Assembly (NCBI GenBank): GCA_001786765.1
Contig: MFTH01000013.1
Location: forward strand, 19,974 to 83,973
Origin: Candidatus Nomurabacteria bacterium RIFCSPHIGHO2_01_FULL_37_25
GTDB lineage: Bacteria > Patescibacteriota > Minisyncoccia > Phycocordibacterales > UBA9973
DNA: 64,000 nucleotides
Direction of reading: 5' to 3'
The notes beneath the pieces were generated by a model that did not search any database, had not been told where the DNA came from, and worked only from the letters and a program-made list of their open reading frames with translations. This document shows positions 849-64,000 of this stretch, in pieces. The translations under genes and the position numbers were made by a program. Each line of letters opens with the position of its first letter. The first letter of the stretch is position 1.

Positions 849-1346
849 ATGAAAAAAATATACGAGAATATAAAAAAGGTTTTTGAAGGAAAAATTTCAT
901 TTAGAATTTTGTGCGGACTTGGGATTATCATCGTTGCCTTGTTGATTTTTTCTGCCGGAATTAGAATTGGTTTTCAAAAAGCGTCTTTTGGACGCGCTTG
1001 GGGAGAACATTATAATGAAAATTTTGGCATGGGAAAGCGCAAAACAAATGAACGTATGGGTGATATGAGAAGAATCGGAGTGATGGACTATTTTCCGAAT
1101 GCTCATGGAGCGACGGGTAAAATCATAAAAATTGAATTGCCAAATGTAATAGTACAAGATAAAGATAACATAGAAAAAATACTAATAATAAACACTGACA
1201 CAAAAATACAAAAAGGAAGAGAAGTAATGTTAACAGCCGATTTAAAAATGGATGATTTCGTTGTTGTGATAGGAACACCTAATGATAAGGGTGTCATAGA
1301 AGCCAAATTTATTCGTGTAATACCATATCCAGAATTCTTAAAATAA
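849..1346 (+). CDS. Hypothetical N-terminally membrane-anchored protein
   Basis: ORF of 165 aa with one N-terminal TM helix (ILCGLGIIIVALLIFSAGI) and a small beta-rich C-terminal domain. No recognisable motif. Confidence 0.4.
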   Translation: MKKIYENIKKVFEGKISFRILCGLGIIIVALLIFSAGIRIGFQKASFGRAWGEHYNENFGMGKRKTNERMGDMRRIGVMDYFPNAHGATGKIIKIELPNVIVQDKDNIEKILIINTDTKIQKGREVMLTADLKMDDFVVVIGTPNDKGVIEAKFIRVIPYPEFLK

Positions 1347-1354
1347 TAAAACTG

Positions 1355-3055
1355 ATGAAAAAAATTACAAAAAAAATAAAGTCATATTTTCTCGCCCATA
1401 AAATAATCAGCGTTGTTGTTTTATTTGCTGTTTTGGGTGGCGGATATTGGGGATATAATAAATTTACAAGCGCCGCTCTCGACACTCGTTACATAACAGC
1501 CAAGGTGGAAAGGGGTACGATTATAGCTTCCATATCAGGTAGTGGTCAGGTTTCTAGTTTAAATCAAATAGATATTAAATCTGCGGTTTCTGGGAATGTT
1601 GTTTACATAACAGCGCAAAATGGTCAGAAAATAAGCGCTGGAGGGTTAATCGCGAAGCTTGATGACAGTGATGTTCAAAAATCCATACGTGATGCGGAAA
1701 TAAATTTAGAATCTTCCCAAATTTCTCTAGAGAAATTTAAAATTCAAAACTCAAAAGAAAACATCGACGCAGATTTAGCAAAAAGTTATGATGATGGTTT
1801 TAATGCTGTTTCAAATGTATTTCTGGACTTGCCGGGAATTATGACAGGTCTTAACGATATGTTTTTTAAAGATAATATAACAATAAGCCAATGGAATGTG
1901 GACTGGTATGAGGGACAAGTTACAAGCGAAGATCGTGAAAAAACAACATACCTAAAAAAAAGTTTTATAGATTCTTATCATAAAGCGAAAAATGCGTATG
2001 ATAAAAACTTTGATGATTATAAAATCATTTCCCGAAACTCAAATAGCGCAACCATTGAAAACTTAATAACACAGTCTTATGAGACGACTAAACTCATCTC
2101 TGATGTCACAAAAAACGCAAACAATTATATTGATTTTGTTAACAGTTCAATACAAAAAAATAATTCTGATACTCCAGCCATAATAAATACACACAAAACA
2201 AGCTTGAGTAACTATACTTCTAAAACCAATTCTCACTTGGTTAGCCTTCTGTCTATTAAAACAAACATCAAAGACAATAAAGATGCTTTTCCTAATGCTG
2301 ACCTCGACCTACGTTCTGCTGAACTATCTTTGAAACAAAAAGAAATTGCATTGCAGGATATAAAAGACAAATTAGCAGATTACTTTATTCGCGCGCCATT
2401 TGAAGGCACCATAGCAAAAGTTGATATTAAAAAATCAGATATAGTGAACTCTGGCGCAGTAGTAGCCACCCTTATCACAAAAAAGCAATTAGCTGAAATT
2501 TCACTTAATGAAGTTGATGTGGCAAAAGTAAAAATCGGGCAGAAAGCCACGCTTACTTTTGATGCTGTTCCAGACCTCGCTATTTCTGGAATTGTGGCAG
2601 ATATTGACGCTATCGGTACTGTCTCTCAAGGAGTTGTAACTTACATTGTAAAAATAAGTTTTGACACACAAGACGAAAAAATAAAACCGGGAATGAGCGT
2701 AAGTGGAAATATTATAACAGATACGAAACAAGACGTGCTTATTGCGCCAAATAGCGCTATAAAATCTCAAGCTGGAAAGAGTTATGTTGAAAACTTTGAT
2801 ATGCCATTAGCGCCATTTGCCACTGAAACAATAGGCTTCACTACTAAAATTACACCAAATAAAATTCCAGTGGAAATTGGTTTGTCAAATGACTCGCGAA
2901 GTGAAATTATTTCAGGTGTTAATGAGGGTGATGAAATAATCATAAGAACAATACTGCCTACAACTACCACAACAACAGCGCCGAGTATTTTTGGCGCGGG
3001 AGCGGGAGGAAACAGAGGAACTGGTGGCGGAGGGGTGAGAATACAAGCGCGTTAA
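1355..3055 (+). CDS. HlyD/MacA-family periplasmic adaptor (membrane fusion protein), unusually long with a Thr/Gly-rich tail
   Basis: N-terminal TM helix, coiled-coil-rich middle and a beta-barrel-like C-terminal region (…IRAPFEGTIAKVDIK…). It is directly followed by MacB-like ATPase and FtsX permease genes. The C-terminus is TTTTTTAPSIFGAGAGGNRGTGGGG. Confidence 0.6.
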   Translation: MKKITKKIKSYFLAHKIISVVVLFAVLGGGYWGYNKFTSAALDTRYITAKVERGTIIASISGSGQVSSLNQIDIKSAVSGNVVYITAQNGQKISAGGLIAKLDDSDVQKSIRDAEINLESSQISLEKFKIQNSKENIDADLAKSYDDGFNAVSNVFLDLPGIMTGLNDMFFKDNITISQWNVDWYEGQVTSEDREKTTYLKKSFIDSYHKAKNAYDKNFDDYKIISRNSNSATIENLITQSYETTKLISDVTKNANNYIDFVNSSIQKNNSDTPAIINTHKTSLSNYTSKTNSHLVSLLSIKTNIKDNKDAFPNADLDLRSAELSLKQKEIALQDIKDKLADYFIRAPFEGTIAKVDIKKSDIVNSGAVVATLITKKQLAEISLNEVDVAKVKIGQKATLTFDAVPDLAISGIVADIDAIGTVSQGVVTYIVKISFDTQDEKIKPGMSVSGNIITDTKQDVLIAPNSAIKSQAGKSYVENFDMPLAPFATETIGFTTKITPNKIPVEIGLSNDSRSEIISGVNEGDEIIIRTILPTTTTTTAPSIFGAGAGGNRGTGGGGVRIQAR

Positions 3056-3067
3056 TTTTAATAACAG

Positions 3068-3769
3068 ATGATTGAAATAAAAAACATTACAAAAACGTAC
3101 AAAACGGGAGATGTTGAGTTTAACGCTTTAGACAATATTTCTTTTACCATCAATGATGGAGAATTTGTGGCTATTATGGGACCTTCGGGATCCGGCAAAT
3201 CAACCTTAATGCATATTTTAGGAGCGTTAGATAATCCAACTTCCGGAACATACTTGCTAGACGAAAAAGATGTGTCAACTTTATCAGATGACGCGCTCGC
3301 AGACATTCGTAAAGATAAAATCGGCTTCGTTTTCCAAGCTTTTAATTTATTGCCGAGAACAACTGTCTTGCGCAATGTGATGTTGCCTTTGGTCTATGCC
3401 GGTGTGCATGGCGCCGAGCGAATTGCGCGAGCTAGAACTGCTCTTTTGTCCGCGGGTCTTGATGAAAATCATTTTCAGCACATGTCTAATCAAATTTCAG
3501 GGGGTCAAATCCAGCGTGTAGCAATAGCTCGAGCTCTGGTAAACAATCCATCACTTATCTTGGCTGATGAACCGACAGGAAATTTGGATTCAAAAACGGG
3601 AGAAATTGTTATGGGAACTTTCCAAAAGTTAAATAAAGAATTAGGCCGCACCATAATTCTGATAACCCACGAACAAGAAATTGCAGAACATGCTGATAGG
3701 ATTCTTTTTATCAAAGATGGAATGCTTCTTGAAGACAGAACTATTAGAAAATCAACTCCCAGATTCTAG
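3068..3769 (+). CDS. ABC transporter ATP-binding protein, MacB/LolD family
   Basis: Walker A GPSGSGKST, signature LSGGQIQRVAIARAL, Walker B ILADEPTGNLD. Confidence 0.9.
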   Translation: MIEIKNITKTYKTGDVEFNALDNISFTINDGEFVAIMGPSGSGKSTLMHILGALDNPTSGTYLLDEKDVSTLSDDALADIRKDKIGFVFQAFNLLPRTTVLRNVMLPLVYAGVHGAERIARARTALLSAGLDENHFQHMSNQISGGQIQRVAIARALVNNPSLILADEPTGNLDSKTGEIVMGTFQKLNKELGRTIILITHEQEIAEHADRILFIKDGMLLEDRTIRKSTPRF

Positions 3770-3794: not shown

Positions 3795-5012
3795 ATGAAA
3801 ATACAAGACATACTTAGTGAAACATATGGAGCTCTCTCTGCCAACAAAGCGCGTTCTGGTCTTACTATGCTAGGTATCGTTATAGGTATCGCTTCTGTTA
3901 TTGCCATGATTTCTATAGGCAACGGGGCTAAAGCGTCTATCCAATCAAGTATTGAAGGGCTCGGCTCAAATCTTTTGACTATTCTTCCGGGGATAGTCCA
4001 GCCCGGGAGAGGCATAGTTTCTTCTGGGCGTGGAGCGGCCCAAACATTGAAAAATGAAGACATTGACATTGTCAAAGCTATAGATGGAGTCGTAGCTGTT
4101 TCGCCAGAAGTCTCAAGCAGGTTTCAAATAATAGCATCAGGCAATAACACAAATACGACTATCACTGGAGTTATGCCGGATTACTTAATCGTGCGTAATA
4201 TAACTCTCTCAAATGGGAACTTCATCTCTGATGGAAATCAGAGAAACATCGGCAGGCAAGCAGTCTTAGGAGCGACCGTGGCGACTGACTTATTTCCTGA
4301 CCAAGATTCTGAAAATCTCTTGGGCAAAACCATCCGCATCAATAAAGTTAATTTTACTGTAATTGGAATATTGGTCGCAAAGGGCGGAACTGGATTTTCC
4401 AGTCCTGATAATATGGTTTTTGTTCCCCTCTCCACAATGCAAAAAATTCTCTCGGGAATGGATTATCTTTCTATGATGGCAGTATCTGTATCTGATAAAA
4501 ATAAAATGGCAGAAGTTAAAGATATGATAACTAATGCATTGCTGGAAAAACATAATGTAGCTGAAGCGGATTTTTCAATAATTTCACAAGAAGATATTTT
4601 AGGAACCCTAACTACCGTGATAGACACTTTTACTCTTTTCCTCGCGGCTATCGCTTCAATCTCACTTTTGGTTGGCGGAATAGGCATCATGAATATGATG
4701 CTGACAACTGTAACCGAACGCACTAAAGAAATCGGACTGCGAAAAGCAATCGGGGCAAAAAGAAAAGATATAAATCTGCAATTTCTTTCGGAAGCGGTAA
4801 TGCTAACATTTATCGGTGGATTTTTGGGAATTATTTTGGGATGGCTTATATCTTTTATAGTGACCTCGACCGGAATTCTCGCCACACAAGTCTCTCTCTC
4901 CTCTGTTCTCTTAGCCTTTGGTGTATCAGCAGGTATAGGTATTATATTTGGATACTACCCTGCCCGCCGAGCGGGTATGTTAAATCCAATTGACGCACTC
5001 CGCTATGAGTAA
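3795..5012 (+). CDS. ABC transporter permease, FtsX/MacB family
   Basis: N-terminal TM helix, large periplasmic domain and a C-terminal four-helix FtsX-like domain (…LTTVTERTKEIGLRKAIGAKRKDI…). Operon with the ATPase gene. Confidence 0.85.
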   Translation: MKIQDILSETYGALSANKARSGLTMLGIVIGIASVIAMISIGNGAKASIQSSIEGLGSNLLTILPGIVQPGRGIVSSGRGAAQTLKNEDIDIVKAIDGVVAVSPEVSSRFQIIASGNNTNTTITGVMPDYLIVRNITLSNGNFISDGNQRNIGRQAVLGATVATDLFPDQDSENLLGKTIRINKVNFTVIGILVAKGGTGFSSPDNMVFVPLSTMQKILSGMDYLSMMAVSVSDKNKMAEVKDMITNALLEKHNVAEADFSIISQEDILGTLTTVIDTFTLFLAAIASISLLVGGIGIMNMMLTTVTERTKEIGLRKAIGAKRKDINLQFLSEAVMLTFIGGFLGIILGWLISFIVTSTGILATQVSLSSVLLAFGVSAGIGIIFGYYPARRAGMLNPIDALRYE

Positions 5013-5325: not shown

Positions 5326-6312
5326 ATGATCCTGACGGGGGCTATTATATTTAGCATCTTCCCTACTTTTGTCTATGCGCAGTATTATTATCAAAATGGA
5401 TATCCATACTATTATAGTCAACCAATCATAAGAACAATTAATGCAACTAATATAACCAGCTCCAGCGCTACTTTGAATGGTTCAGTTACTGGATATAATA
5501 TCTCTAATACTTATAACTTTAGCATGTGGTTTGAATACGGAAGGAATGCCAATTTTGGATATTCTACATTCCGTAATTCTTTTAATTCTGGGTATCCTAA
5601 TTATAGTTCAAATATTGCATCGCTTGATGCAAATACCGTATATTATTTCCGCGCCGTGGCGCAAGGTCCGCAAGGAATTATTTATGGAAATACAACTTCG
5701 TTTATAACTAGTTTCCCAACTATAACAAACATAAACACGGAAAATAATAATCTTTCAAATCCTAGTGTTACCACAAACCCCGCAACCTCAATATCAAACA
5801 GAAGTGTAAAGCTAAACTCTTTTATAATAAATTCTATAAACAATCCGTTTACCACTTGGTTCGAATGGGGAACAACTCCAGCCTTGGGAAATATAAGCCC
5901 AATGACAGCCCTTGGAGCGCTACCTTCCGCAAAGCACATAAATACCATCACAGAACTCGCTCCAGGAACTACTTATTATTTCCGCGCAGTGGCGCAAAAT
6001 CCATTTTCAAGAATCAATGGCGCTACTTTTAGCTTTACAACAAGTAATGCTATAAGCCAAATTAATGCTGTGGAAAAAACAGAAGAAAACACTACTGAGA
6101 TAAATACTAGCAAAGAAAATAAAGTTAACACAAATATCTTAGAATCTGCGGAATCTGCGTTTGGGGCAAATTTGATTGGAGCTGGCTCTTTTCTTCCAGT
6201 TAATATTTTTGGCTGGCTTCTTTTAACTATTCTTATACTCGCGCTAGTACTTCTGGCCGAATATCTTTATCATGATTTATTCGGGAAAAAATCAAAACAA
6301 AAACACTCCTAA
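5326..6312 (+). CDS. Secreted protein with a signal peptide, two tandem Fn3-like repeats and a C-terminal TM anchor
   Basis: Signal peptide MILTGAIIFSIFPTFVYA. Two copies of a module with SSATLNGSV…WFEYG…YYFRAVAQ. A C-terminal hydrophobic helix is followed by KKSKQKHS. An alternative GTG start exists at 5296. Confidence 0.6.
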   Translation: MILTGAIIFSIFPTFVYAQYYYQNGYPYYYSQPIIRTINATNITSSSATLNGSVTGYNISNTYNFSMWFEYGRNANFGYSTFRNSFNSGYPNYSSNIASLDANTVYYFRAVAQGPQGIIYGNTTSFITSFPTITNINTENNNLSNPSVTTNPATSISNRSVKLNSFIINSINNPFTTWFEWGTTPALGNISPMTALGALPSAKHINTITELAPGTTYYFRAVAQNPFSRINGATFSFTTSNAISQINAVEKTEENTTEINTSKENKVNTNILESAESAFGANLIGAGSFLPVNIFGWLLLTILILALVLLAEYLYHDLFGKKSKQKHS

Positions 6313-6336
6313 AAATCTGTGTTATATTTATACCCA

Positions 6337-7008
6337 ATGCGAATAAATAAATATCTTGCTCTTAAAAAAATCTCTACCAGACGAGGGGCGGACGAGCTAA
6401 TAAAAGGAAAAAAGGTCTTTATTAATGGCAAGCTAGCGTTACTTGGCAGTAAAGTGAATGAAAAAGATAAAATAGAAGTAAAAGGAGCGAAGCAAAAAGA
6501 ATATAAATATTTTATTTACAATAAACCAATTGGAGTAGAAACAAGCTCGCCAAAAGATGATTTATTCCCGTTAGGCAGATTAGACAAAAATTCACACGGG
6601 CTTTTGATACTCACAAATGACGGACGCATCACCGACGCTCTTTTGAATCCTAAATATTTTCACGAAAAAGAATACGTCGTTAAAACTTCTAATAAACTGC
6701 GTTCTAGTTTTAAACAAAAAATGGAAACTGGAGTAAATATTGAGGGCTTGCCCGCCTTGCATACGCAAGCAGGATATATGACCAAGCCTTGCAAGGTTAA
6801 AATTATAAATGATTTTACTTTTAGAATAACTTTGACTGAAGGAAAGAAACATCAAATCAGACGCATGTGCTCCGCGCTTTTTCAAGAAGTCGCTGACCTA
6901 AAACGTGAAAGAATTATGAATATAAAATTGGGCGATCTAAAATTGAATGCCCTTCGAGAAATAAAAGGTGAAGAATTGACTGTTTTCCTAGATCAAGTGC
7001 TTCATTAA
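6337..7008 (+). CDS. rsuA: Pseudouridine synthase, RsuA/RluB family (S4 domain plus catalytic domain)
   Basis: MRINKYLALKKISTRRGADELIKGKKVFINGK is an S4 domain. GRLDKNSHGLLILTNDG is the catalytic Asp motif. KHQIRRMC lies in the C-terminal region. An alternative GTG start exists at 6319. Confidence 0.8.
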   Translation: MRINKYLALKKISTRRGADELIKGKKVFINGKLALLGSKVNEKDKIEVKGAKQKEYKYFIYNKPIGVETSSPKDDLFPLGRLDKNSHGLLILTNDGRITDALLNPKYFHEKEYVVKTSNKLRSSFKQKMETGVNIEGLPALHTQAGYMTKPCKVKIINDFTFRITLTEGKKHQIRRMCSALFQEVADLKRERIMNIKLGDLKLNALREIKGEELTVFLDQVLH

Positions 7009-7654: not shown

Positions 7655-10450
7655 ATGCCAATGCTCGAAATAAAAAAAAGAAATGGGAATATTGTTCCTT
7701 TTGATGTAGAAAAAATTACTGCCGCAATGGGTAAAGCATTTATCGCATCAAATCAACCTCTCCCTAAGGATACACTGCTAGATATAACCAAAGATATTGT
7801 TCGAACTTTGGAAGACCAATTCCCTGAACAAGTTCCTTCTGTAGAACACGTGCAAGATCTTGTTGAACTCGCTCTTATGAAAGCTGGGTTTCTTGATGTC
7901 GCAAAGAATTACATTGTTTATCGTTATGAACACACTAAAATACGCGCCGAGAAGAAACAGGAATTCTTAGAAAAAGTAGAAACCAAAGGATTTGTCGTAC
8001 ATACCCGAGACGGAAGCAAAGAACTCTTTTCTGAAAAAAAAGTTCGCGAAACACTTGCGGTGTTTATAAAGGGATATGAATCTATAATAGATATTGATCT
8101 AGTCCTCACCCAACTTAAACATGATCTTTACGAAGGTATCACAACGGACGAAATATCACGATCGCTGACGCTTGTCATGCGCTCGATGATTGAACGCGAT
8201 CCAGCATATTCAAAAATTGCGGCGCGAATGCTTATGGACAGAATATATGCAGATGTCTTTGGTCATGGATACAATACTGCTCAACTTAAAGAAGAGCATT
8301 CAAAAATATTCGCGCGCAATATCAAAGATGCAGTTGCGCGCAATCTGCTTGATGCTCGGATGCTTGATTTTGATCTTATAAAACTTGGCAGTGCGTTACA
8401 ATTAGAAAATGATGATCTTTTTGAATACATGGGGCTTGAGATTCTCGCTTCTCGCTACTGTTTAGAAGATCTGGACGCAAAAAAACCGTTTGAAACTCCA
8501 CAGATGTTTTGGATGCGTATTGCTATGGGACTTTCACTCAATGAGCCTGAGAAAACAAAGATAAAAACAACCCTTGAGTTCTATGATGTGTTGTCGAATT
8601 TCTACTACACCCCTGGCGGTCGCACGCTCTTTCAATCAGGCGCGGTAAAAGCTCAACTCTCTAACTGCTTTTTGAATGTTGTGCCGGACTCGCTTGACTC
8701 TATATTCAAATCTTTTTCTGATAACGCGCAATACCTAAAATGGTCAGGCGGTACAGGAACAGCCTGGAGCAAAGTTCGAGCAACAGGGTCTTTCATTAAA
8801 GGTACAGGTGTGGGAAGCCAAGGGGTAGTTCCATTTCTCAAAATCGCAAATGACATCAATACCGCAATTAATCGTTCCGGCAAGCGACGTGGCGCTGGTT
8901 GCGTGTACCTAGAAACGTGGCATCTTGATATTGAAGATTTTCTTGAGCTTCGTAAAAATACAGGAGACGAGCGACGTCGAACTCACGACATAAACACCGC
9001 TAATTGGGTTCCGGACCTCTTTATGAAGCGTGTGCGCGAAGGGGGCGAATGGACGCTTTTCTCGCCTTCAGATACTCCCGATTTACCAGAACTTTATGGT
9101 AAAGCGTTTGAAGAACAATATAAAAAATATGAAGCAATGGTTGAGCGCGGAGAAATCAAACTCTACAAACGCATCTCTGCGGCTGACCTTTGGAAAAAAA
9201 TGCTAGCCATGTTGTTTGAAACTGGACATCCTTGGATTACCTGGAAAGACCCAAGCAATATCCGAAGTCCACAAGACCACGCAGGAGTAATTCATAATTC
9301 AAATCTCTGTACGGAAATAACCCTCAATACGAGCGAAGATGAAACCGCTGTTTGCACTATTGGATCATTGAACTTTGCAAAATTTGTTAACAACGGGAAA
9401 TTTGATACACATCTCATAAGTCGAGTGACAGAGACGGCAATGCGAATGCTCGATAATGTTATTGACCTAAACTATTATCCAACCGAAGATGCAAAACGCG
9501 GAAATATGCGCCATCGTCCGGTGGCTTTGGGTATCCGCGGTTATCATGATGCATTATACCTTCTCGGCATTCATTTTGATTCAGGAGAAGCGCTTGATTT
9601 TGCGGACGAAAGCATGGAAATCGTCGCATATAATGCCATACTTGCCTCAAGTAAACTCGCCAAAGAAAAAGGAACTTATGAAACATATAAAGGTTCTAAA
9701 TGGGATCGAAACATCTTTCCCCAAGACACCATTGCATTACTTGCGGAAGAACGCGGAGAAGAAGTGCCTCTTCCGAAGAGCGGAAAACTAGATTGGACTC
9801 CCGTGCGTGAACACGTTAAGAAATACGGCATGCGCAATTCAAATACAATGGCAATAGCTCCGACTGCTTCAACAGCGAATTTGGTCGGATGCATTCCATG
9901 TGTAGAACCAATCTACAAAAACATCTATGTGAAATCTAATAAAGAGGGCGATTTTGTGGTCGTAAATAAATATCTAGTTCAAGATTTGAAAACGCTAAAT
10001 CTTTGGAATGACGACATCTTAAATAAAATTAAATATGCTGATGGTAGTATTCAGGAAATTGCGGAGATTCCAACCGACTTGAAAAGAAAATACAAGGAAG
10101 TTTTTGAAATTGAGGGACGTTGGCTAATTGAAGCGGCCGCCAGAAGAGGCCGTTGGATGGATCAATCACAATCCCTTAATATTTTTTATTCTGGCAATTC
10201 AGGTCGTGAACTATCAGAGTTATATTTCCTTGCTTGGAAGTTGGGACTAAAAACAACATATTACCTGCGTACTCTAGGCGCTTCACAAGTCGAAAAAGCA
10301 AGTATCTCGACTGCAGAGTTCGGCGCAACCCATACAAGACAAAAAGTGGTTATCCCAACAGAATCTCCTAAATCAAAAATTGATCCAGCTTTTCTTGCTA
10401 AAGTCGCTATGGGAGAAACAGTCGGTATATGTGAATCGTGCGAAGGATAA
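7655..10450 (+). CDS. nrdA: Ribonucleoside-diphosphate reductase alpha subunit (class Ia, with N-terminal ATP-cone)
   Basis: ATP-cone-like N-terminus (LEIKKRNGNIVPFDVEKI). Class I active-site motif NSNLCTEITL…AVCTIGSLNF. C-terminal Cys pair …CESCEG. The extension in ORF 7586 upstream of Met at 7655 is non-coding-like. Confidence 0.9.
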   Translation: MPMLEIKKRNGNIVPFDVEKITAAMGKAFIASNQPLPKDTLLDITKDIVRTLEDQFPEQVPSVEHVQDLVELALMKAGFLDVAKNYIVYRYEHTKIRAEKKQEFLEKVETKGFVVHTRDGSKELFSEKKVRETLAVFIKGYESIIDIDLVLTQLKHDLYEGITTDEISRSLTLVMRSMIERDPAYSKIAARMLMDRIYADVFGHGYNTAQLKEEHSKIFARNIKDAVARNLLDARMLDFDLIKLGSALQLENDDLFEYMGLEILASRYCLEDLDAKKPFETPQMFWMRIAMGLSLNEPEKTKIKTTLEFYDVLSNFYYTPGGRTLFQSGAVKAQLSNCFLNVVPDSLDSIFKSFSDNAQYLKWSGGTGTAWSKVRATGSFIKGTGVGSQGVVPFLKIANDINTAINRSGKRRGAGCVYLETWHLDIEDFLELRKNTGDERRRTHDINTANWVPDLFMKRVREGGEWTLFSPSDTPDLPELYGKAFEEQYKKYEAMVERGEIKLYKRISAADLWKKMLAMLFETGHPWITWKDPSNIRSPQDHAGVIHNSNLCTEITLNTSEDETAVCTIGSLNFAKFVNNGKFDTHLISRVTETAMRMLDNVIDLNYYPTEDAKRGNMRHRPVALGIRGYHDALYLLGIHFDSGEALDFADESMEIVAYNAILASSKLAKEKGTYETYKGSKWDRNIFPQDTIALLAEERGEEVPLPKSGKLDWTPVREHVKKYGMRNSNTMAIAPTASTANLVGCIPCVEPIYKNIYVKSNKEGDFVVVNKYLVQDLKTLNLWNDDILNKIKYADGSIQEIAEIPTDLKRKYKEVFEIEGRWLIEAAARRGRWMDQSQSLNIFYSGNSGRELSELYFLAWKLGLKTTYYLRTLGASQVEKASISTAEFGATHTRQKVVIPTESPKSKIDPAFLAKVAMGETVGICESCEG

Positions 10451-12155: not shown

Positions 12156-13859
12156 ATGAAGCCAGAGACTAAAAATTGCCAAAACTGTAAAAAGGATTTT
12201 ACTATTGAGCCAGAAGATTTTAATTTTTATGAAAAAATAAAAGTTCCCCCACCCTCTTGGTGTCCAGAGTGTAGAATGATTCGACGGTTTGCAGCAGTGA
12301 ACACTCTTTGTCTATTTTATCGAAATTGTGATAAGTGCAACAAACGCACCCTTTCAATGATTTCTCCGGAAGAAAAAATAAAAGTATTTTGTCAGCCATG
12401 CTGGTGGGCGGATGATTGGGATGGTAGTGAATATGAAATGGAATATGATCCGACGCGTACATTTCTTTCTCAATTAAAAGAACTCTCACTCAAAACTCCT
12501 TATCCGGCTTTGGAATCATCGTATTTAACCCTAAAAAATTGTGATTATTGCAATGCTCTGGCTTACTCCAAAGATTGTTCTTTGATTTTCTGGGCAGATT
12601 ATTGCGAATCAGTTTTTTATTCTTCTATTTTGAATGGATTAAAATGGAGCGCTGACTGTCTAAGAGGATGGAAATCTGAATTATGTTACGAATCGACAGG
12701 ATTTATCCGTAGTTATCGGACTTTCTTTTCTGAGGATTTTGATGATTGTGTAGATGTATGGTTTTCTCGTAATTGTTACGGTTGTATAAATTGTGTGGGG
12801 TGTGTTAATCTAAGAGGCGCTAAATATCAGATTTTTAATGTTCAGTATTCTAAAGAAGAATATGCAAAAAAACTTAAAGAATTTGGTTTTGACTCATGGA
12901 AAAAACTTAAAGAATTTGATAAAAAGGCGCGTGAATTTTGGTTGACTAAGCCGTATCGTGAATTTCACGGCAATGCGTTTAACTTGAATGTTACGGGCGA
13001 GCATATCTATGTTTCTAAAAATTCTAAAGAATGTTTTATTTTAAATGGCGCTGAAAATTGTAAATGGTGTCAGTTAGTAACCGTGGATGGTTCCAAGGAT
13101 TGTATGGATTATTCTGGCTGGGGGCACAATGCTGAACTTATCTATGAATCTGCCAGTGTTGGGGAAGGAGTCAGTAATGTAAAATTCTCCGCGCTTTGTT
13201 TTCCAGACGTAGCTAATTCTGAATACTGTATATTTAGTATCGCCGGAAAATATAATTTTGGTTGCGCAAATTTAAAACGCAAAAAATATTCTATTTTAAA
13301 CAAACAATATAGCAAAGAAGACTATGAAATTTTGCGGGAAAAAATAATTATGGATATGAAAAAGAACCCATATGTAGATAACCTTGGCCGAGTTTGGTCT
13401 TATGGAGAATTTCCGCAAATAATTTTTGGAATATTTCCTTATAATAAGTCCAATGCTATGCGATTTTTCCCTAAAACAAAAGAACAAGCCTTGAGTGAGG
13501 GTTACAGATGGGATGATGCGGAAAATCCTATTTATCCAATCACGATAAAATCCACAAATTTACCTGACACAATACAGGAAACCAATGATTTAATTTTAAA
13601 TGAAGTAATAGAATGTATGACTTGTGCTAGGTCCTTTAGAATAATCAAGGGTGAATTAGAAGTACTGCGCAAGATGGGTTTGCCAGTACCACATGAATGC
13701 CCAAAATGCAGAGAAAATAGAAGATTTGAGCGGATGAATGGGCCGGGTATGTATCATCGCCAGTGCGCTAAATGTAATTTATCTATTTATACCCCATATG
13801 ATTCCAAGCGACCTGAAATTGTGTATTGCGTAAAATGCTATCAGCAAGAATTTATCTAA
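12156..13859 (+). CDS. Cys-rich zinc-ribbon repeat protein of unknown function (567 aa)
   Basis: The N-terminus CQNCKKDF.I…DFNFYEKIKVPPPSWCPECRMIRR…CDKC…VFCQPCWWADDWD is mirrored by a C-terminal copy CMTCARSF.I…LRKMGLPVPHECPKCRENRR…CAKC…VYCVKCYQQEF. Several internal NCxxC… units and a duplicated KYxI.N.QYSKE(E/D)Y segment. About 45 Cys in total. Confidence 0.7.
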   Translation: MKPETKNCQNCKKDFTIEPEDFNFYEKIKVPPPSWCPECRMIRRFAAVNTLCLFYRNCDKCNKRTLSMISPEEKIKVFCQPCWWADDWDGSEYEMEYDPTRTFLSQLKELSLKTPYPALESSYLTLKNCDYCNALAYSKDCSLIFWADYCESVFYSSILNGLKWSADCLRGWKSELCYESTGFIRSYRTFFSEDFDDCVDVWFSRNCYGCINCVGCVNLRGAKYQIFNVQYSKEEYAKKLKEFGFDSWKKLKEFDKKAREFWLTKPYREFHGNAFNLNVTGEHIYVSKNSKECFILNGAENCKWCQLVTVDGSKDCMDYSGWGHNAELIYESASVGEGVSNVKFSALCFPDVANSEYCIFSIAGKYNFGCANLKRKKYSILNKQYSKEDYEILREKIIMDMKKNPYVDNLGRVWSYGEFPQIIFGIFPYNKSNAMRFFPKTKEQALSEGYRWDDAENPIYPITIKSTNLPDTIQETNDLILNEVIECMTCARSFRIIKGELEVLRKMGLPVPHECPKCRENRRFERMNGPGMYHRQCAKCNLSIYTPYDSKRPEIVYCVKCYQQEFI

Positions 13860-57130: not shown

Positions 57131-57311
57131 CCTATTAGAAAGCGACTAAATAATAATTTTACTATTGACCATGCCCCGTAAATTTCTAACGGGATTCATT
57201 AGTCTCATATTATACTATTTTTGTTTAACAAAAAAACTCTTGTAAATAGATGAAAACTTATTAACTCTGTTGATAAGCTGTGGATAAAAATTTTAGATTC
57301 TAAGTCACTTT

Positions 57312-59737: not shown

Positions 59738-61126
59738 TTATTTCAATTCCAGTTTCCACAAAAAAGAATCTTTTTTATTTACAAAAAATAAATAATCTTC
59801 AGCTTCACTCAAGGCCATTTTTATACCATCAATTTCTTCAAATACAATTGCAAAAGGATCTAAAATTATTGTTGCGTTCCCGGTTTTTACATCTATTTTC
59901 CAAAGTTGGTCGCTGAAAGACACTTCCCCTTGATACCAGCTATCTGGATATTCGCCCGGGCTAACAAATTTTGGCACAGCGCAGTAGATAACATCATTTG
60001 CTTTACCCCAAACACATTTCTCTGGCAGAGTTCTTACTCCAAGCAGGTTAAAACTTCTACTGTTTATGTCATATATATACAAAGACAAATTATTGTTGCC
60101 GTAAAGAATCAGCTTTCCATCTGGACTTCCAAGTGTAGTCAATCCATTTATATCGCCTAAAATTTTACTAAAGTTTTTGCCTAAAGAATTTATCGTGTAC
60201 ATATATCCGGGAATATTTGCGGAAGGTTTTGTCGTCAGAGTAATTAAATTATTATTTGGCCAAAATGACAGCCATTCTGTAAAAGGAGAATCAAACACTT
60301 GTATTTTTTTATTGTTTAATAAATTCATAGTTATGCCTATCATATTGCTTCCTGAGTCACTATTACTCTCAAATAAATAGAAAATTTTTAAACCGTCGGG
60401 AGACATACTAATATCTCTGACATTATTAGGTAAGAAAGAGCCCTTAGCTTCATTATTTCCCGTTGTGTCTCCTCCTAATAATTCTTTTGGCAGGTTTCCG
60501 ACAAAAGTTTCTATGGTTTCCTCATCTGCTTTTAGATATCGCATAATAACAGATTCTCCCTTATTTCCAAAATAGGCTTCATACACTCTAGGTATTATCG
60601 TTACTGAAAACTTTCTTTCCTCTATTTTATCCACAAAAGTTTGAAAAATATTTCCAGTTGCTCTGTCCACATATCTTAAAGCAGGCGCGAATTCGGTTTC
60701 TGGCGGGGCTGGTTTAACTGACGCTTTTTTATTTTTTGTTTCCTTTTCTGGTTCTAGAGTATTTTCAATTAGCGGACCTGTTTCTGGCGCCACTATTGGC
60801 ACATCTTTCAACCTTTCTTTATTAAAAACGGTAAATCCCGCAATAGGCATACTTGAAACTCTGACAAGTTTTGCTTCCAGTGTTTCTGTTGTGACAGAAG
60901 GCTCATCTTCTGATATATCAAATGGAGGGGGTACAGGAGGAGGATTTGGTTTGCTTTCTCCAAATGGATTAAATTGTGAAATAAAGTTTGTGCCTGGATT
61001 ATCGTACTTCGGTATATTTGTTATATATCCTTTGAAATATAAAAACCAAAAAACTGCAACCACAATTATTAGCAAGATTATTATTAAAAGTGTAAAATTT
61101 CTTTTTGACATAGTTAATGATTCCAT
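59738..61126 (-). CDS. Membrane-anchored beta-propeller-like protein (PD40/TolB-like repeats)
   Basis: N-terminal TM helix, a Pro-rich linker (PNPPPVPPPF) and repeated …SPDG(K/L).I(F/L)Y… beta-propeller-like units. Confidence 0.45.
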   Translation of the reverse strand: MESLTMSKRNFTLLIIILLIIVVAVFWFLYFKGYITNIPKYDNPGTNFISQFNPFGESKPNPPPVPPPFDISEDEPSVTTETLEAKLVRVSSMPIAGFTVFNKERLKDVPIVAPETGPLIENTLEPEKETKNKKASVKPAPPETEFAPALRYVDRATGNIFQTFVDKIEERKFSVTIIPRVYEAYFGNKGESVIMRYLKADEETIETFVGNLPKELLGGDTTGNNEAKGSFLPNNVRDISMSPDGLKIFYLFESNSDSGSNMIGITMNLLNNKKIQVFDSPFTEWLSFWPNNNLITLTTKPSANIPGYMYTINSLGKNFSKILGDINGLTTLGSPDGKLILYGNNNLSLYIYDINSRSFNLLGVRTLPEKCVWGKANDVIYCAVPKFVSPGEYPDSWYQGEVSFSDQLWKIDVKTGNATIILDPFAIVFEEIDGIKMALSEAEDYLFFVNKKDSFLWKLELK

Positions 61127-62286
61127 CTGTCAATGCACTTTTTTTGCTTGGCATTTTTAGAATCTGCTGTCCATGCGCTAAAGCCTTGTTTTCTGTACAC
61201 ACACACAGCCGCGCCGGTGCTACAGGTAAAGTTATCAGCTGCTTTCTTGCATTGTTGTATAATTGCTTCAAATCCTGGCTTAGGATTTCCATCTTTGAAA
61301 GCAGTAGAACAATTAAGAGGTCCGGATATTCCAGCAGCAGAGTAGCAAGCTGGAGTTTCAAAACATTCACTATGAGATTGTAAAAGTATTTGATAAGGTC
61401 CATATGCAGATGAGCCTCCACCCCAATTATAATTTTCGACTGATTTACAACCACTCTCTGGAGTTATTAGACATGAAAAAGTAGCTGCTTGTCCTCCTGT
61501 GATAGGCGTGCCAGCTGCCTGGGCTGCTTCTAAAATAGTTCTTGAGTCACAACTTGTGCCGACACTATTTTGGTTAATCGGACCTCCGTCACCAGCAGTT
61601 ACTTCTCCATCACTATTAGTAACAATAAAATCTTTGTCGGTTATTTTAATAACTAACGGTTTCAAACTTTTTAAATCAGTTTTCAGTAAATCCGGATTTA
61701 TTGTATTTAAAAGCGCGTAAGCACCGAGGGCTATGAGAAGCCCCAAAAGCGCTTGCCATATTTTTTCCTTGCCTGCTTCTTTGGTGTGAGCAAGTTCGCT
61801 TGTCATGTATTCCATTCCCCCTATGACAATCATCACTACGGAAAAAACTGCGCAAAGACCTATAAATATTTTTATCATTGTGTTTAGATATGCGCTTAGG
61901 GCATCATTATTATCCTGCGCAGGAGTAAAAGTTACAAGTTTTCCGTCAACACAACCAGGACTTGTACCAGTGCAAGGCAGCGGGGCTAAAAGTGTATATT
62001 CTGTTGGCCCCCCTCCTTGTGTTTCTGGTGTACCCGGACAGGCAGTAGTTGTGCAGTGGCCTCCACCGCATCCACTCTGGCACAGGGCGGTATTTTCAAA
62101 AGGGACGCAAGTTGCCGGGGTTAATCCGCTATCCTGTGCGTCTCTATTACAAAACCTTCCGGCTTCCACAGCATTCACATGCGCCATCGGGCTAAATATT
62201 CCAACTAGCGTTATCAGTATTAATCCCAGTACTAAAATTTTACTTTTAGCTTCTAGTCTTAATTTATTTTTATCTTTTTTAATCAT
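61114..62286 (-). CDS. TrbC/VirB2-like double-TM hairpin protein fused to a Cys-rich Rpf/transglycosylase-like (lysozyme-like) C-terminal domain
   Basis: Signal/TM helix. A Cys/Gly-rich stretch. …LNTMIKIFIGLCAVFSVVMIVIGGMEYMTS-ELAHTKEAGKEKIW-QALLGLLIALGAYALLN… is a two-helix hairpin as in T4SS pilins. The C-terminus …CKSVENYNWGGGSSAYGPYQI…SECF… resembles the Rpf/transglycosylase-like motif C-ESGGNW…G…YGGLQF. GC-rich relative to the genome. Confidence 0.5.
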   Translation of the reverse strand: MIKKDKNKLRLEAKSKILVLGLILITLVGIFSPMAHVNAVEAGRFCNRDAQDSGLTPATCVPFENTALCQSGCGGGHCTTTACPGTPETQGGGPTEYTLLAPLPCTGTSPGCVDGKLVTFTPAQDNNDALSAYLNTMIKIFIGLCAVFSVVMIVIGGMEYMTSELAHTKEAGKEKIWQALLGLLIALGAYALLNTINPDLLKTDLKSLKPLVIKITDKDFIVTNSDGEVTAGDGGPINQNSVGTSCDSRTILEAAQAAGTPITGGQAATFSCLITPESGCKSVENYNWGGGSSAYGPYQILLQSHSECFETPACYSAAGISGPLNCSTAFKDGNPKPGFEAIIQQCKKAADNFTCSTGAAVCVYRKQGFSAWTADSKNAKQKKCIDRWNH

Positions 62287-62291
62287 TTTTA

Positions 62292-63269
62292 TTAAAATTC
62301 TATATTTATTTCTTTATTGGTTGTCTGGAAAATTTTATTTCTATTTTCAACTTCCAGCCTTAATTTTGATGTTCCAGAAACCCCGATCATTGCTTGAATT
62401 GGCATTAAATTCTTTTTAGGCCCGCTCAAACTCACCAAACTATCGTTTATAAACCAGCGCCATATCAATGTTGGACTTTGTAAATATTTTGGTGAAATAA
62501 AATAAGGCGCCGCTTCCACTATCTCTGGCCCTTGTATTCTGTGCGAATTCATAAGTATTTTTTCCCAAACTGTCCCCACATTATTATCTCTTTTATAAAA
62601 TAATATTTTAGGTTCGGTCGTTCCTATGTTTATATAGGCTTGATTTGAATATTTCTGGTCTAAAGTGGAAGCTGTCACCGAGATATTGTTTGAATTTTCT
62701 AAATAATCATTAGTAAAAAGAAAAAAGTTTTTACCGTAACCCGAACCATCCACATTATTAGTATAGTCCTTTTTCCAAGCGTAAGTCATATTTTTTGAGT
62801 CGATTAAACCAGAGCCAGTTCGTATTTCTGGCATAGCCACTACTTTTACTTCACTATCAGGTGTAGGCAAGGCCTTGCCTTTATAAAAAGGTGGCGTGTA
62901 CGAATCGTCGTTGCTTTGCCAGAGCAAAATCATTACAGAAGGTTTTATCACTGTTTTTATTTCCATTGTTATGCCGTCTGGGAGAGTTATCGTTGCTGAC
63001 ACAGTTGCCTCTTTTCCAGCATCAGGCGCGGTGGTGAAAAATGACTTCTTGCCAATTCCTGATGTAATGATTTTGCCATTTACAGACCAAGATATAGAAA
63101 CACTGTCGAGGTTATAAAGGTAACTGTTCAAACTGACACTTATGTTTTCATTTGGATCTGGATAGGGGGGTACAACACTAATAAAAATATTGCTAGATGA
63201 TTGGGCATTTGCCACTGTTCCAGACAATAAGAATGTTGCAAATAATAATAATAAAAATTTTAACTTCAT
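62292..63269 (-). CDS. Secreted hypothetical protein (signal peptide)
   Basis: MKLKFLLLLFATFLLSGTVANA|QSS… is a cleavable signal peptide, followed by a beta-rich 300-aa domain. Confidence 0.45.
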   Translation of the reverse strand: MKLKFLLLLFATFLLSGTVANAQSSSNIFISVVPPYPDPNENISVSLNSYLYNLDSVSISWSVNGKIITSGIGKKSFFTTAPDAGKEATVSATITLPDGITMEIKTVIKPSVMILLWQSNDDSYTPPFYKGKALPTPDSEVKVVAMPEIRTGSGLIDSKNMTYAWKKDYTNNVDGSGYGKNFFLFTNDYLENSNNISVTASTLDQKYSNQAYINIGTTEPKILFYKRDNNVGTVWEKILMNSHRIQGPEIVEAAPYFISPKYLQSPTLIWRWFINDSLVSLSGPKKNLMPIQAMIGVSGTSKLRLEVENRNKIFQTTNKEINIEF

Positions 63270-63343
63270 AACCTGATTATATCATTTATTTATTAATAAT
63301 TTACTTTCTAACTTTTAGAATACACTGCTTAACCAACAAGCCA

Positions 63344-64000
63344 TTAGCTAGGTGTCTGTCCTCTCTCCTGCTCTTCTTTGGCTTTTCTGTTTGATAATAT
63401 TTGCGAGGGATCAGAAGTGATAATCTGGTCTTCGGTGTAAGAAGCAATGACTTTTATGGCAACATGTTTTAAGCCTGCGAAAAATATGCCTTCCCCTACG
63501 CTAGACTCCAGAAGAAGATATTTCTCTTCGTCGGTAAGATTAAAAGTTTTCTGCAAAATATCAATGGTAGTGGGTGATTGTTCTAAGAGAAGCTGAATAG
63601 AAGAATTGGTAATTATTGGCACACCATAAGACGATTTCATAAAGTCAGACGCGTCTTGGGTGATAGTGGAAAGACCTAAATAATATTTTCTGCCTCTTTT
63701 TGCCATAGAATATAAAAATGACGCAGTGTCTTCGGACTTCATCATCCACCAAGCTTCATCAATAACCAGCAAGCGTTTTTTAAGATTTCTGCGGATAGCG
63801 TTCCAGATATAATGCATAATTATATACATCGCCACCGGTTTCAATTCGTCTTCCATATCACGCACAGAAAAAACAATAAAATTTTTATTAATATCCACAT
63901 TACTTGGTCTATTCAAAAATGTTGACCAAGAACCTTTTGTGTATTTCGCTAATCGCTGTAGCACGGAATCGCTTCCAGTCATCCCTCCTAGCACCATTTC
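63344..64000 (-). CDS. VirB4/TrbE-like type IV secretion ATPase, C-terminal part (gene continues beyond the window end)
   Basis: Walker B LLVIDEAWWMM. …RKYYLGLSTITQDASDF… is typical of the VirB4/CagE C-terminal motifs. The ORF is open to the window edge. Confidence 0.65.
   Translation of the reverse strand, partial: EMVLGGMTGSDSVLQRLAKYTKGSWSTFLNRPSNVDINKNFIVFSVRDMEDELKPVAMYIIMHYIWNAIRRNLKKRLLVIDEAWWMMKSEDTASFLYSMAKRGRKYYLGLSTITQDASDFMKSSYGVPIITNSSIQLLLEQSPTTIDILQKTFNLTDEEKYLLLESSVGEGIFFAGLKHVAIKVIASYTEDQIITSDPSQILSNRKAKEEQERGQTPS

Follow-up and report, generated by a model that had tools for sequence, protein, structure and literature searches.

A VirB2/TrbC-like hairpin fused to a lysozyme-fold domain in the origin-proximal T4SS operon of a Paceibacteria-class CPR bacterium

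The edge of the window (the whole stretch of 64,000 nucleotides analyzed here) is the distal end of a conserved, chromosomal, origin-proximal T4SS operon of the MPF-FATA-like, i.e., Gram-positive, type in a CPR bacterium of the class Paceibacteria (Candidatus Nomurabacteria). The sole VirB2-like protein encoded by this operon, 390 aa in length, combines a pilin-like hairpin with a C-terminal domain whose nearest relatives, by profile and by fold, are the C-type (GH22) lysozymes. The domain identities, the logic of the topology, the strict synteny with virB4 and the cassette-like replacement of the C-terminal module in related operons are established below. Taken together, these features somewhat favor the interpretation that, in the 390-aa protein, a VirB1-type enzyme for breaching the wall is anchored to a VirB2-like T4SS component.

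The T4SS operon and its genomic context

The segment 59738-64000 holds four co-directional genes on the minus strand, as the earlier note had read it and as the ORF calls confirm:

63344..>64000, minus strand: VirB4-like ATPase, C-terminal 219 codons; the gene runs past the window edge
62292-63269, minus strand: 325-aa protein with an N-terminal signal-like segment (ORF)
61114-62286, minus strand: 390-aa fusion of a signal peptide, a variable Cys-rich region, a VirB2/TrbC-like hairpin, a linker and a lysozyme-fold domain (ORF, profiles, model)
59738-61126, minus strand: 462-aa protein with an N-terminal TM anchor, a Pro-rich linker and an extracytoplasmic 7-bladed beta-propeller

That the region belongs to a T4SS and includes part of VirB4 is upheld: the fragment, which covers aa 395-613 only, matches PF19044 (3.7e-18) and NCBIfam NF045971, conju_CD1110 (9e-37). 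The longer contig L001, identical to the window DNA, was used for the part of the operon beyond the window edge and for the whole-protein score; the full-length VirB4 (613 aa, L001 8085-9926) scores 361 bits with NF045971, vs a cutoff of 325. The VirB4 motifs GSGKS (Walker A), DEAW (Walker B) and RGRKY...TQ are all present. Further along L001 are encoded a TrsD-like protein (NF041427, 1.5e-8), PrgI/VirB3 (PF12666, 32 bits vs a cutoff of 27), secreted repeat proteins and a polytopic VirB6-like candidate (749/762 aa), which has about 6-7 hydrophobic segments and fits the operon position, with no sequence match in Pfam, NCBIfam or PDB. The expectation that the rest of the system would be encoded past the window edge is borne out for the TrsD-like protein, PrgI/VirB3 and the VirB6-like candidate but not for VirB8, VirB9 and VirD4, none of which is found in the cluster; among the 11 cluster proteins scanned, none matches the relaxase or T4CP families.

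The pilin-like gene is the second one following virB4, and the operon adjoins jag-yidC-yidD-rnpA-rpmH/dnaA, with dnaA 2.6 kb from the cluster end. The combination of virB4 with nearby genes for TrsD, PrgI/VirB3 and a VirB2-like protein, the lack of a relaxase and the origin-proximal location correspond to the Patescibacteria T4SS as delineated in PMC12102498, where this organization was already published in 2025; the 'minimal' module of the earlier note is, instead, this conserved system.

Both flanking proteins are characteristic of the operon. In the 325-aa protein, a hydrophobic signal-like segment (aa 3-21) makes secretion plausible; searches of Pfam, NCBIfam and PDB identify no family. 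Its orthologs in L007-L009 occupy the same position and are 54-57% identical, and in a survey of 80 species-representative loci the protein is found in 76, so that it is a conserved operon member. The 462-aa protein, which contains a TM segment (aa 11-29), has no sequence-family match in Pfam or NCBIfam. Its AF2 model (pLDDT 79.5, pTM 0.72) is all-beta over aa 87-460, and a Foldseek search of PDB retrieves 7-bladed propellers, including TolB and WD40 proteins (probability 1.00, E 1e-10 to 1e-9). The predicted fold is accordingly a seven-bladed beta-propeller, in agreement with the earlier designation of the last gene. More than 1662 homologs of this protein were identified, some with a PG_binding_1 domain at the N-terminus.

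The surroundings are rich in housekeeping genes (dnaA, dnaN, yidC, rnpA, class A PBP), and the 390-aa gene is chromosomal and single-copy, as would befit a general wall-remodelling enzyme of growth or division that is encoded near oriC and functionally unlinked to the T4SS genes. Such a role is nevertheless very improbable given that in 71 of the 80 loci the pilin gene is accompanied on its own strand by all three of virB4, the 325-aa gene and the propeller gene, that the 390-aa gene is tightly packed among its neighbors (a 5-nt gap and a 13-nt overlap, the latter with the propeller gene), and that the N-terminal domain belongs to a T4SS-specific family.

Domain architecture of the 390-aa protein

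The 390-aa protein is identical to the NCBI entry 'hypothetical protein A2641_01430' (Candidatus Nomurabacteria) and can be divided as follows:

62170-62286, minus strand: signal peptide, aa 1-39 (MIKKDKNK...SPMAHVNA), with a hydrophobic segment at aa 17-35 and a model helix at 4-31
62002-62169, minus strand: variable Cys/Gly/Pro-rich region, aa 40-95, with 6 Cys, GC 0.56, disordered in the model
61678-62001, minus strand: VirB2/TrbC-like pilin domain, aa 96-203, with two hydrophobic helices, a Lys-rich loop and a terminal INPDLL
61561-61677, minus strand: linker, aa 204-242, at whose start the swappable cassette has its left breakpoint
61117-61560, minus strand: lysozyme-fold (C-type-like) domain, aa 243-390, with 10 Cys; three methods agree on the fold
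61456-61458, minus strand: codon of Glu277 (checked), the candidate general-acid catalyst, aligned with Glu35 of C-type lysozyme

Beyond the signal peptide, hydropathy analysis delineates hydrophobic segments at aa 130-155 and 176-194, matching helices 129-162 and 166-196 of the AF2 model, which are separated by a short basic loop, TSELAHTKEAGKEK. This is the architecture of VirB2/TrbC pilins. Profile matches to the hairpin are concordant across three libraries, although each remains below the respective cutoff: PF18895 on aa 128-194 (2.3e-4, 21.6 bits vs 26.6), TrbC, PF04956, on aa 123-196 (3.7e-3, 17.9 bits vs 27.9) and NCBIfam NF045849, Mbov_0395 pilin-like, on aa 128-196 (1.8e-6, 27.5 bits vs 40). 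At E<=1e-3, 110 of 120 homologs match PF18895, and close and other homologs pass its cutoff (e.g., 33.7, 29.5 and 28.1 bits). Among solved structures, the pilin-domain profile retrieves no VirB2. Conservation of the hairpin is strong (on average, 61% identity per column), with the near-invariant motifs YLN, GG.EYMTSE and INPDLL, the last of which ends the domain, and the 390-aa ORF is the only pilin-like one in the window and the upstream 9.3 kb.

The hairpin might be thought of as a membrane anchor only, i.e., a generic two-TM likeness in an ordinary wall hydrolase that happens to be encoded in a T4SS operon, with no pilus biology. This appears quite unlikely because the same residues are picked by three independent pilin models, many homologs exceed the PF18895 cutoff, and the near-invariant motifs surpass the needs of a passive anchor. 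Furthermore, about 10 of the 80 orthologous slots encode a hairpin protein without an enzyme, so that a conserved role belongs to the hairpin itself.

The C-terminal domain is assigned to the lysozyme fold, and, as in GH22, the candidate catalytic Glu terminates helix B. Its invariant residues are C246, C272, E277, C280, G296, Q299, C355, A360, W372 and C384, and Glu277 is invariant in both family alignments (A1 and A2). The second catalytic carboxylate (Asp52/53 of C-type lysozyme) is absent, its place taken by a near-invariant Ala (SSAYG vs STDYG), so that the chemistry of the domain is uncertain. No Pfam family matches the domain at E<=1, PF00062 has no match at E<=1 in the 390-aa protein or at E<=1e-3 in 29 family members, and the domain profile scores only 9.5 bits against hen lysozyme. 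A Foldseek search with the full-length model finds no lysozyme; of the structural expectations in the earlier note, the hairpin helices and the lysozyme-like fold were recovered, the latter by the three methods mentioned above.

The proposal that pilin-like and cell-wall domains reside in one polypeptide is upheld, and the profile searches bear out its pilin half, albeit below the cutoffs. The proposed Rpf/transglycosylase-like identity of the C-terminus is abandoned: PF06737 has no match at E<=1, the A1 profile scores 0.7 and -0.2 bits with RpfB and M. luteus Rpf sequences, and hhalign yields 1-3%. SLT families (PF01464/PF13406/PF18896) likewise give no profile match, an Slt70 sequence scores -1.8 bits, and an hhalign comparison of A1 with the SLT_2-type cassettes found in sister proteins yields 0.5%. 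A remote tie to the SLT_3-like cassettes may exist (5-20%). The lysozyme-fold family occurs in CPR bacteria, always fused behind the pilin-like domain. It is possible, though unlikely, that among prokaryotic proteins this CPR-restricted family stands closest to animal C-type lysozymes.

The 390-aa gene is indeed GC-richer than the genome, but by a small margin (0.418 vs 0.37 +/- 0.035 for long ORFs). Because GC3 is lower in this gene (0.286) than in the average ORF (0.315), the excess is attributable to the Gly/Ala/Pro/Cys-rich amino acid composition, with no sign of transfer or foreign origin.

Replacement of the enzyme module and the proposed role

Orthologous operons with VirB4 proteins 85-88% identical carry unrelated modules in the same slot: VanY, SLT_2, NlpC/P60, M15, YkuD, Amidase_2, domains without an assignment, or none. 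The DNA breakpoints are sharp: one directly follows the INPDLL motif, and the other coincides with the end of the gene; in the comparison with L009, DNA similarity stops at L001 11606, i.e., window 61664. Among the 80 loci, the modules include a metallopeptidase-like one of unknown family (15), NlpC/P60 (13), VanY (8), SLT_3-like lysozyme (8), SLT_2 (5), YkuD (3), M15_4 (3) and the GH22-like domain (2), with Amidase_2 in one unclassified case. Judging from family assignments, every identifiable module is predicted to act on peptidoglycan. YkuD is a transpeptidase, not a hydrolase, and fits poorly with simple 'hole-cutting'. Since about 10 slots lack a module, the enzyme is either dispensable or supplied in trans. 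The downstream propeller stays the same (54-61% identity) whatever the enzyme, no immunity-like gene co-varies with the enzyme type, and two genomes possess an additional, orphan copy that bears another enzyme (L024 vs L027; L036 vs L038). No description of a swappable wall-enzyme module fused to a T4SS pilin-like protein was found in the searchable literature.

Under the scenario that we favor, the signal peptide would export the 390-aa protein, and the hairpin would insert with both ends outside the cell, so that the outer C-terminus would present a disulfide-rich lysozyme-fold glycosidase with a single catalytic Glu. The domain is predicted to be active on peptidoglycan and might function as a muramidase or lytic transglycosylase via Glu277. 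The protein would then serve as the VirB1 equivalent, a peptidoglycan cutter whose tethering to the pilin-like component confines wall cleavage to the site of the machine; the wall breached for the T4SS could be the cell's own or that of the host. Gram-positive T4SS hydrolases (pIP501 TraG, pCF10 PrgK, ICEBs1 CwlT) are membrane-anchored, essential and varied in enzyme type (in part PMC12102498). Most of the VirB2-carrying Patescibacteria have no recognizable VirB1 (PMC12102498), and fusion of the hydrolase to the VirB2-like protein would explain this absence in the present class.

The turnover of modules can also be construed differently, with the hairpin as a true polymerizing VirB2 pilin, extracted by VirB4, that forms an enzyme-decorated filament cutting the host wall at contact; module swapping would then reflect adaptation to host wall chemistry, by analogy with phage lysins and polymorphic toxins. 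In the F pilus, pilin C-termini point outward; in the T pilus, VirB2 is cyclized and has no free C-terminus. The absence of another pilin-like ORF, the conservation of the hairpin in the face of the fast turnover of the enzyme module and the orphan copies with different enzymes are all in line with such a weapon, as are reviews according to which pili may be built by the T4SSs of Patescibacteria and epibiotic growth cannot proceed without these systems (PMC12857230, PMC10633639). Nonetheless, we consider a lytic pilus rather unlikely: an appendage of about 190 aa per subunit may clash with VirB2-type packing, the same propeller lies downstream regardless of the enzyme, with no co-varying immunity-like gene, and diversity of hydrolases is already normal in the self-wall VirB1 analogs of Gram-positive T4SSs. 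More generally, and with a still smaller likelihood, the Paceibacteria T4SS 'pilin' could act as a scaffold that delivers a polymorphic set of cell-wall enzymes, with VirB4 polymerizing or extruding the hairpin and the cassette breaching the host wall; the cassettes (lysozyme-like, amidase, endopeptidase, carboxypeptidase, L,D-transpeptidase) may be chosen according to host wall chemistry. Should this be the case, the essential Patescibacteria T4SS would gain a concrete role, the opening of the host envelope.

Comparison with known systems

The chromosomal T4SSs of Patescibacteria (Quinonero-Coronel et al. 2025, PMC12102498; Wang et al. 2023, PMC10633639) possess the same set of VirB4, TrsD-like, PrgI/VirB3, VirB6-like (here a candidate) and VirB2-like proteins, similarly without a relaxase or T4CP in the cluster, and the location by dnaA/dnaN/rnpA/rpmH agrees with that reported there for Paceibacteria. 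In both papers, the VirB2-like proteins are taken as plain pilins; the fused interchangeable peptidoglycan-enzyme module is absent from these accounts, as are the conserved 325-aa protein and the propeller partner.

With polymorphic toxins and phage lysins, the 390-aa protein shares a conserved N-terminal delivery or anchor part followed by a sharply bounded, fast-exchanged cassette after a junction motif (INPDLL); unlike in polymorphic toxins, a cognate immunity gene is not evident, and all identifiable cassettes are predicted to act on peptidoglycan. From C-type lysozyme/alpha-lactalbumin (GH22, PF00062), the domain differs by the Ala at Asp52/53 and by the 10 Cys in another pattern. Like VirB2/TrbC/TraA pilins (PF04956, PF18895; Mbov_0395), the 390-aa protein has a long signal peptide and two hydrophobic helices connected by a short basic loop, and it is encoded near virB4; unlike these pilins, it bears a Cys-rich extension of 56 aa on the N-terminal side and, on the C-terminal side, a linker and enzyme that together span 187 aa. 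As is proposed for this protein, the VirB1-type hydrolases (pIP501 TraG, pCF10 PrgK, ICEBs1 CwlT) are membrane-tethered, operon-encoded and diverse in their catalytic types, and they open a passage through the wall for the T4SS. They are tethered by a single N-terminal TM helix, whereas the tether here is a VirB2/TrbC-like hairpin, and the 390-aa type carries one catalytic module per protein, in this case a C-type-lysozyme-like one rather than SLT, CHAP or NlpC/P60.

The T4SS operon and its neighborhood

The segment 59738-64000 of the window carries four tightly packed ORFs, all on the minus strand:

63344 to beyond 64000, minus strand: C-terminal fragment of VirB4, in an ORF running off the window edge
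62292-63269, minus strand: 325-aa protein
61114-62286, minus strand: 390-aa protein, its gene starting 5 nt after the 325-aa gene
59738-61126, minus strand: 462-aa propeller protein, its gene sharing 13 nt with the 390-aa gene

The side of the cluster away from the window edge is bordered by the plus-strand genes jag (R3H), yidC, yidD, rnpA and rpmH, and then by dnaA; this neighborhood is the replication-origin region. Two adjacent DnaA-box-like 9-mers in the dnaA-rpmH spacer (57268-57287; one is the perfect TTATCCACA, the other has a single mismatch) fit an oriC at this position; across the whole window, DnaA-box matches are not above chance (23 vs 16 +/- 4). A promoter and terminator scan was uninformative (20 promoter-like sites vs 14.2 +/- 4.0 expected; 1 terminator-like site vs 3.2 expected).

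The 390-aa and 462-aa proteins exactly match the hypothetical proteins A2641_01430 and A2641_01425 from a Candidatus Nomurabacteria MAG, which places the DNA in the CPR/Patescibacteria, class Paceibacteria. A look-up of the 325-aa protein returned several contigs, among them the longer contig L001, which contains the exact reverse complement of 59738-64000 (window position = 73270 minus L001 position) and encodes the following proteins:

L001, upstream of the window edge: full-length VirB4, 613 aa (NCBIfam conju_CD1110, 361 bits vs cutoff 325)
L001: TrsD-like protein, 213 aa, resembling the VirB4 N-terminus (NF041427, 1.5e-8)
L001: PrgI/VirB3, 153 aa (PF12666, 32 bits vs cutoff 27)
L001 5719-6141 and 6173-6850: two small paralogous proteins, 140 and 225 aa
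L001: polytopic membrane protein, 749/762 aa, with about 6-7 hydrophobic segments; VirB6 candidate by position
L001 1164-3368: secreted repeat protein, 734 aa
L001: 282-aa protein

The earlier note had recognized the VirB4 fragment by its motifs and expected further T4SS components just past 64000. The fragment does contain the Walker B motif DEAW and the RGRKY...TQ motif, and L001 supplies the remainder of VirB4, the TrsD-like protein, PrgI/VirB3 and the positional VirB6 candidate, for which a search of PDB sequences was empty and no homology match was obtained. None of the 11 cluster proteins scanned matches coupling protein or relaxase families. This organization has already been described for Patescibacteria, in particular Paceibacteria, as a set of VirB4, TrsD, PrgI/VirB3, VirB6-like and VirB2-like genes that lacks a relaxase, mostly misses VirB1 and adjoins dnaA/dnaN/rnpA/rpmH (Quinonero-Coronel et al. 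2025, PMC12102498), and a Saccharibacterium, the one species tested, cannot grow epibiotically without a homologous T4SS (PMC10633639). The module itself, its place near the origin and its VirB2-like genes are thus known already; the role of Patescibacteria T4SS was called 'completely unknown' in a 2024 perspective (PMC11665869).

Several other features of these operons can be recorded. The 734-aa protein contains several Ig-like repeats (PF13629, 3e-5, 24.1 bits vs cutoff 23), and a stretch at its N-terminus weakly resembles tape-measure proteins (TIGR01541, 1.6e-4); the protein is a candidate surface fiber or adhesin of the T4SS. The adjacent 140-aa and 225-aa proteins are cytoplasmic-looking, 28% identical and without family assignment; the pair is kept in three loci fetched through homologs and compared with the window's operon (L007, L008 and L009). 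In these loci, small ORFs that look like selfish-element insertions, absent from the window's operon, lie between the gene for a protein of about 200 aa and prgI: a GIY-YIG ORF in L007 (4941-5207) and 23S_rRNA_IVP-family ORFs in L008 (5488-5847) and L009 (5437-5784). In L007, prgI, the trsD-like gene and the gene for the 325-aa homolog are each in pieces (5946-6775 and 8968-9959); L003, which comes from the window's own species, has virB4 divided into 114 + 488 aa (7997-9926) and a broken 734-aa gene (1065-3397). These split genes reflect either T4SS pseudogenization in some strains or assembly errors.

The pilin-like protein and its C-terminal domain

The 390-aa protein contains, from its N-terminus on, these regions:

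aa 1-39: signal peptide
aa 40-95: segment rich in Cys, Gly and Pro that varies among homologs and is modeled as disordered
aa 96-203: hydrophobic helix pair (129-162 and 166-196 in the model) with a Lys-rich loop between the helices and a near-invariant INPDLL motif at the end
aa 243-390: predicted lysozyme-fold domain

The segment aa 123-196 matches PF18895 (T4SS_pilin, 2.3e-4), PF04956 (TrbC/VirB2, 3.7e-3) and the NCBIfam Mbov_0395 pilin-like family (1.8e-6), all with scores under the curated cutoffs; PF18895 is matched at E<=1e-3 by 110 of the 120 best homologs, several of them above the cutoff. Comparison of the pilin-domain profile with PDB sequences identified no solved pilin structure, and neither the window nor the 9.3 kb upstream of it contains another pilin-like ORF. 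Given the cleaved signal peptide and the basic loop, both ends of the predicted hairpin should be extracytoplasmic, which fits the presence of 10 Cys in the C-terminal domain. The earlier note called the gene GC-richer than the genome; its GC is 0.418 vs 0.37 +/- 0.035 for long ORFs of the window. Its GC3 is below the mean (0.286 vs 0.315) and the excess resides mostly in the Cys/Gly/Pro-rich segment (GC 0.56), so that it reflects amino-acid composition and is no sign of transfer; a foreign origin on this ground was rejected.

The domain at aa 243-390 has no Pfam or NCBIfam match. Its initial assignment to the Rpf or SLT type was dropped, given that Pfam, hhalign and profile comparisons were unsupportive of both. 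In A1, an alignment of 19 family members, the invariant residues (full-length numbering) are C246, C272, E277, C280, G296, Q299, C355, A360, W372 and C384. A search with the A1 profile against all PDB sequences identifies human lysozyme C (E 1.3e-4) in a colinear match (profile 28-61 on lysozyme 28-62, profile 107-141 on lysozyme 86-120) that places E277 over the catalytic Glu35 and a conserved Cys over Cys30. Among 1.84 billion representatives, the same profile retrieves the animal multi-domain C-type lysozyme proteins P0222, P0230 and P0250 at 1e-11 to 1e-4, and hhalign of A1 against these animal domains together with human and hen lysozymes yields a probability of 92.4% (E 5e-7, 40% identity over 40 core columns). 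The profile scores are uneven, namely 22 bits for human, 11 for goose and 9.5 for hen lysozyme (approximate values), which indicates that the signal comes from the common Glu-Ser...G-x-x-Q core, with some further resemblance to particular GH22 members. None of the lysozyme-like family members matches PF00062, a near-invariant Ala (SSAYG) stands where lysozyme has its second catalytic Asp (STDYG), and a Foldseek search with the full-length model gave no match. Weighing the profile matches against these observations and the weak hen and goose scores, we call the domain lysozyme-fold and C-type-like, but do not count it as a GH22 member. Because a single-carboxylate site is a feature of goose-type lysozymes and lytic transglycosylases, either lysozyme or lytic transglycosylase chemistry is possible for the predicted domain.

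A search with the C-terminal alignment in a word-indexed database of 5.8 billion proteins gave 2 uninformative matches and was replaced by the exhaustive search of the 1.84 billion representatives, in which the family amounts to 152 clusters at 50% identity. In 120 of the 140 newly returned representatives, the pilin-like domain precedes the lysozyme-like domain; the other 20 include the three animal multi-lysozyme proteins and, for the most part, sequences that seem to have lost their N-terminus by truncation. Judging from these sequences, the domain appears to be essentially restricted to the pilin fusion, and the finding defines a small CPR-restricted lysozyme-fold family.

Exchange of the C-terminal cassette

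The pilin part is common to all 120 best homologs, and the regions past INPDLL fall into unrelated groups. A pilin-profile scan of species-representative genomes yielded 80 loci with a comparable variety of modules.

C-terminal modules following the INPDLL motif (members among the 120 best homologs; loci in the 80-locus survey)
C-type-lysozyme-like: 29; 2
c2, without known family: 20; 15
SLT_3/SLT-like lysozyme group (SLT_3-like in the survey): 10; 8
VanY: 8; 8
SLT_2: 7; 5
Peptidase_M15_4: 6; 3
YkuD: 6; 3
NlpC/P60: 3; 13
Unclassified, at least 100 aa (one is Amidase_2, 7e-14): survey only, 12
No module (C-terminal extension under 100 aa): survey only, 10
Other: survey only, 1

By family, every identifiable module in the survey is peptidoglycan-acting. 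L007 (lysozyme-like), L008 (VanY) and L009 (SLT_2) have the same operon adjoining jag-yidC-yidD-rnpA-rpmH/dnaA-dnaN, with identities to the window of 85-88% for VirB4, about 80% for the TrsD-like protein, about 60% for PrgI, 54-57% for the 325-aa protein, 54-61% for the propeller and 47-57% for the pilin domain; the C-terminal domain of the window shows no similarity to those of L008 and L009. DNA similarity between L001 and L009 ends at L001 11606, just past the INPDLL codons, and resumes at 12158, where similarity of the propeller genes begins. The exchangeable cassette is thus sharply bounded (window 61113-61663, L001 11607-12157).

The c2 cassette (L020, L022, L026, L028 and others, about 4300-4850 in each) has no Pfam match, and a search of its profile against PDB sequences was empty. 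Its alignment (A6) contains invariant H103, H112, D120, E153 and H156-W-H158, a motif that by itself suggests a LAS-type Zn peptidase; c2 may represent an undescribed peptidoglycan peptidase family. The survey thus flags at least one common cassette without a known family (15 of 80 species).

In 71 of the 80 loci, the pilin gene is flanked on the same strand by VirB4, by the homolog of the 325-aa protein and by the propeller; of the other nine, most are interrupted by the end of a contig and two correspond to orphan second copies. This synteny contradicts a housekeeping role of the 390-aa protein unrelated to the T4SS, which we consider highly improbable. The N-terminus of the 325-aa protein is signal-like; Pfam and NCBIfam gave no relatives with a known function, and a PDB sequence search was empty. 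In the 462-aa protein, a single TM helix at the N-terminus and a Pro-rich linker precede an all-beta domain; its AF2 model (pLDDT 79.5, pTM 0.72) resembles propellers with seven blades, TolB and WD40 proteins among them (E 1e-10 to 1e-9). This family is large (more than 1662 homologs), and some members of about 516-528 aa (P0266, P0326, P0334, P0348, P0351, P0358 and others) possess an N-terminal PG_binding_1 domain, which points to wall association of the family. Since it is conserved whatever the enzyme class, the propeller probably does not serve as an immunity protein tied to a particular cassette.

Predicted role of the fusion protein

The best-supported reading, toward which we lean by a small measure, is that the 390-aa protein stands in for VirB1 in this operon: tethering to the VirB2-like component would restrict its cutting of the wall to the site of the machine; if true, this would explain the 'missing VirB1' of the Paceibacteria class. 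That the hairpin is a plain membrane anchor seems rather improbable, given the strong conservation of the motif and the slot consisting of the hairpin alone in roughly 12% of species. Some genomes encode, at a distance from virB4, an additional orphan gene of the pilin-enzyme type, with an enzyme class unlike that of the operon copy: NlpC/P60 vs lysozyme-like 15 kb apart on one contig (L036 and L038, CAZUCZ010000002.1), and VanY vs SLT_3-like in one genome (L024 and L027). Such orphan copies, along with the fast turnover of cassettes, speak for the main rival reading, a hairpin that truly polymerizes into a filament displaying the enzyme and attacking the host wall; however, no immunity gene co-varies with the enzyme and enzyme-bearing subunits might pose a packing problem, so that we hold this only as a tentative possibility.

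The searchable literature, which includes few subscription journals so that absence is not proof, contains no description of a pilin-hydrolase fusion with an exchangeable peptidoglycan-enzyme cassette, and neither the C-type-lysozyme-like family nor the conserved 325-aa and propeller partners were found described there. A VirB2-like protein carrying an exchangeable peptidoglycan enzyme offers a testable handle on the Patescibacteria T4SS. The cassette junction after INPDLL resembles the junction motifs of polymorphic toxins. Hydrolases of Gram-positive T4SS are membrane-anchored and varied in enzyme type, and the proposed VirB1 equivalence of the fusion protein matches this general logic.
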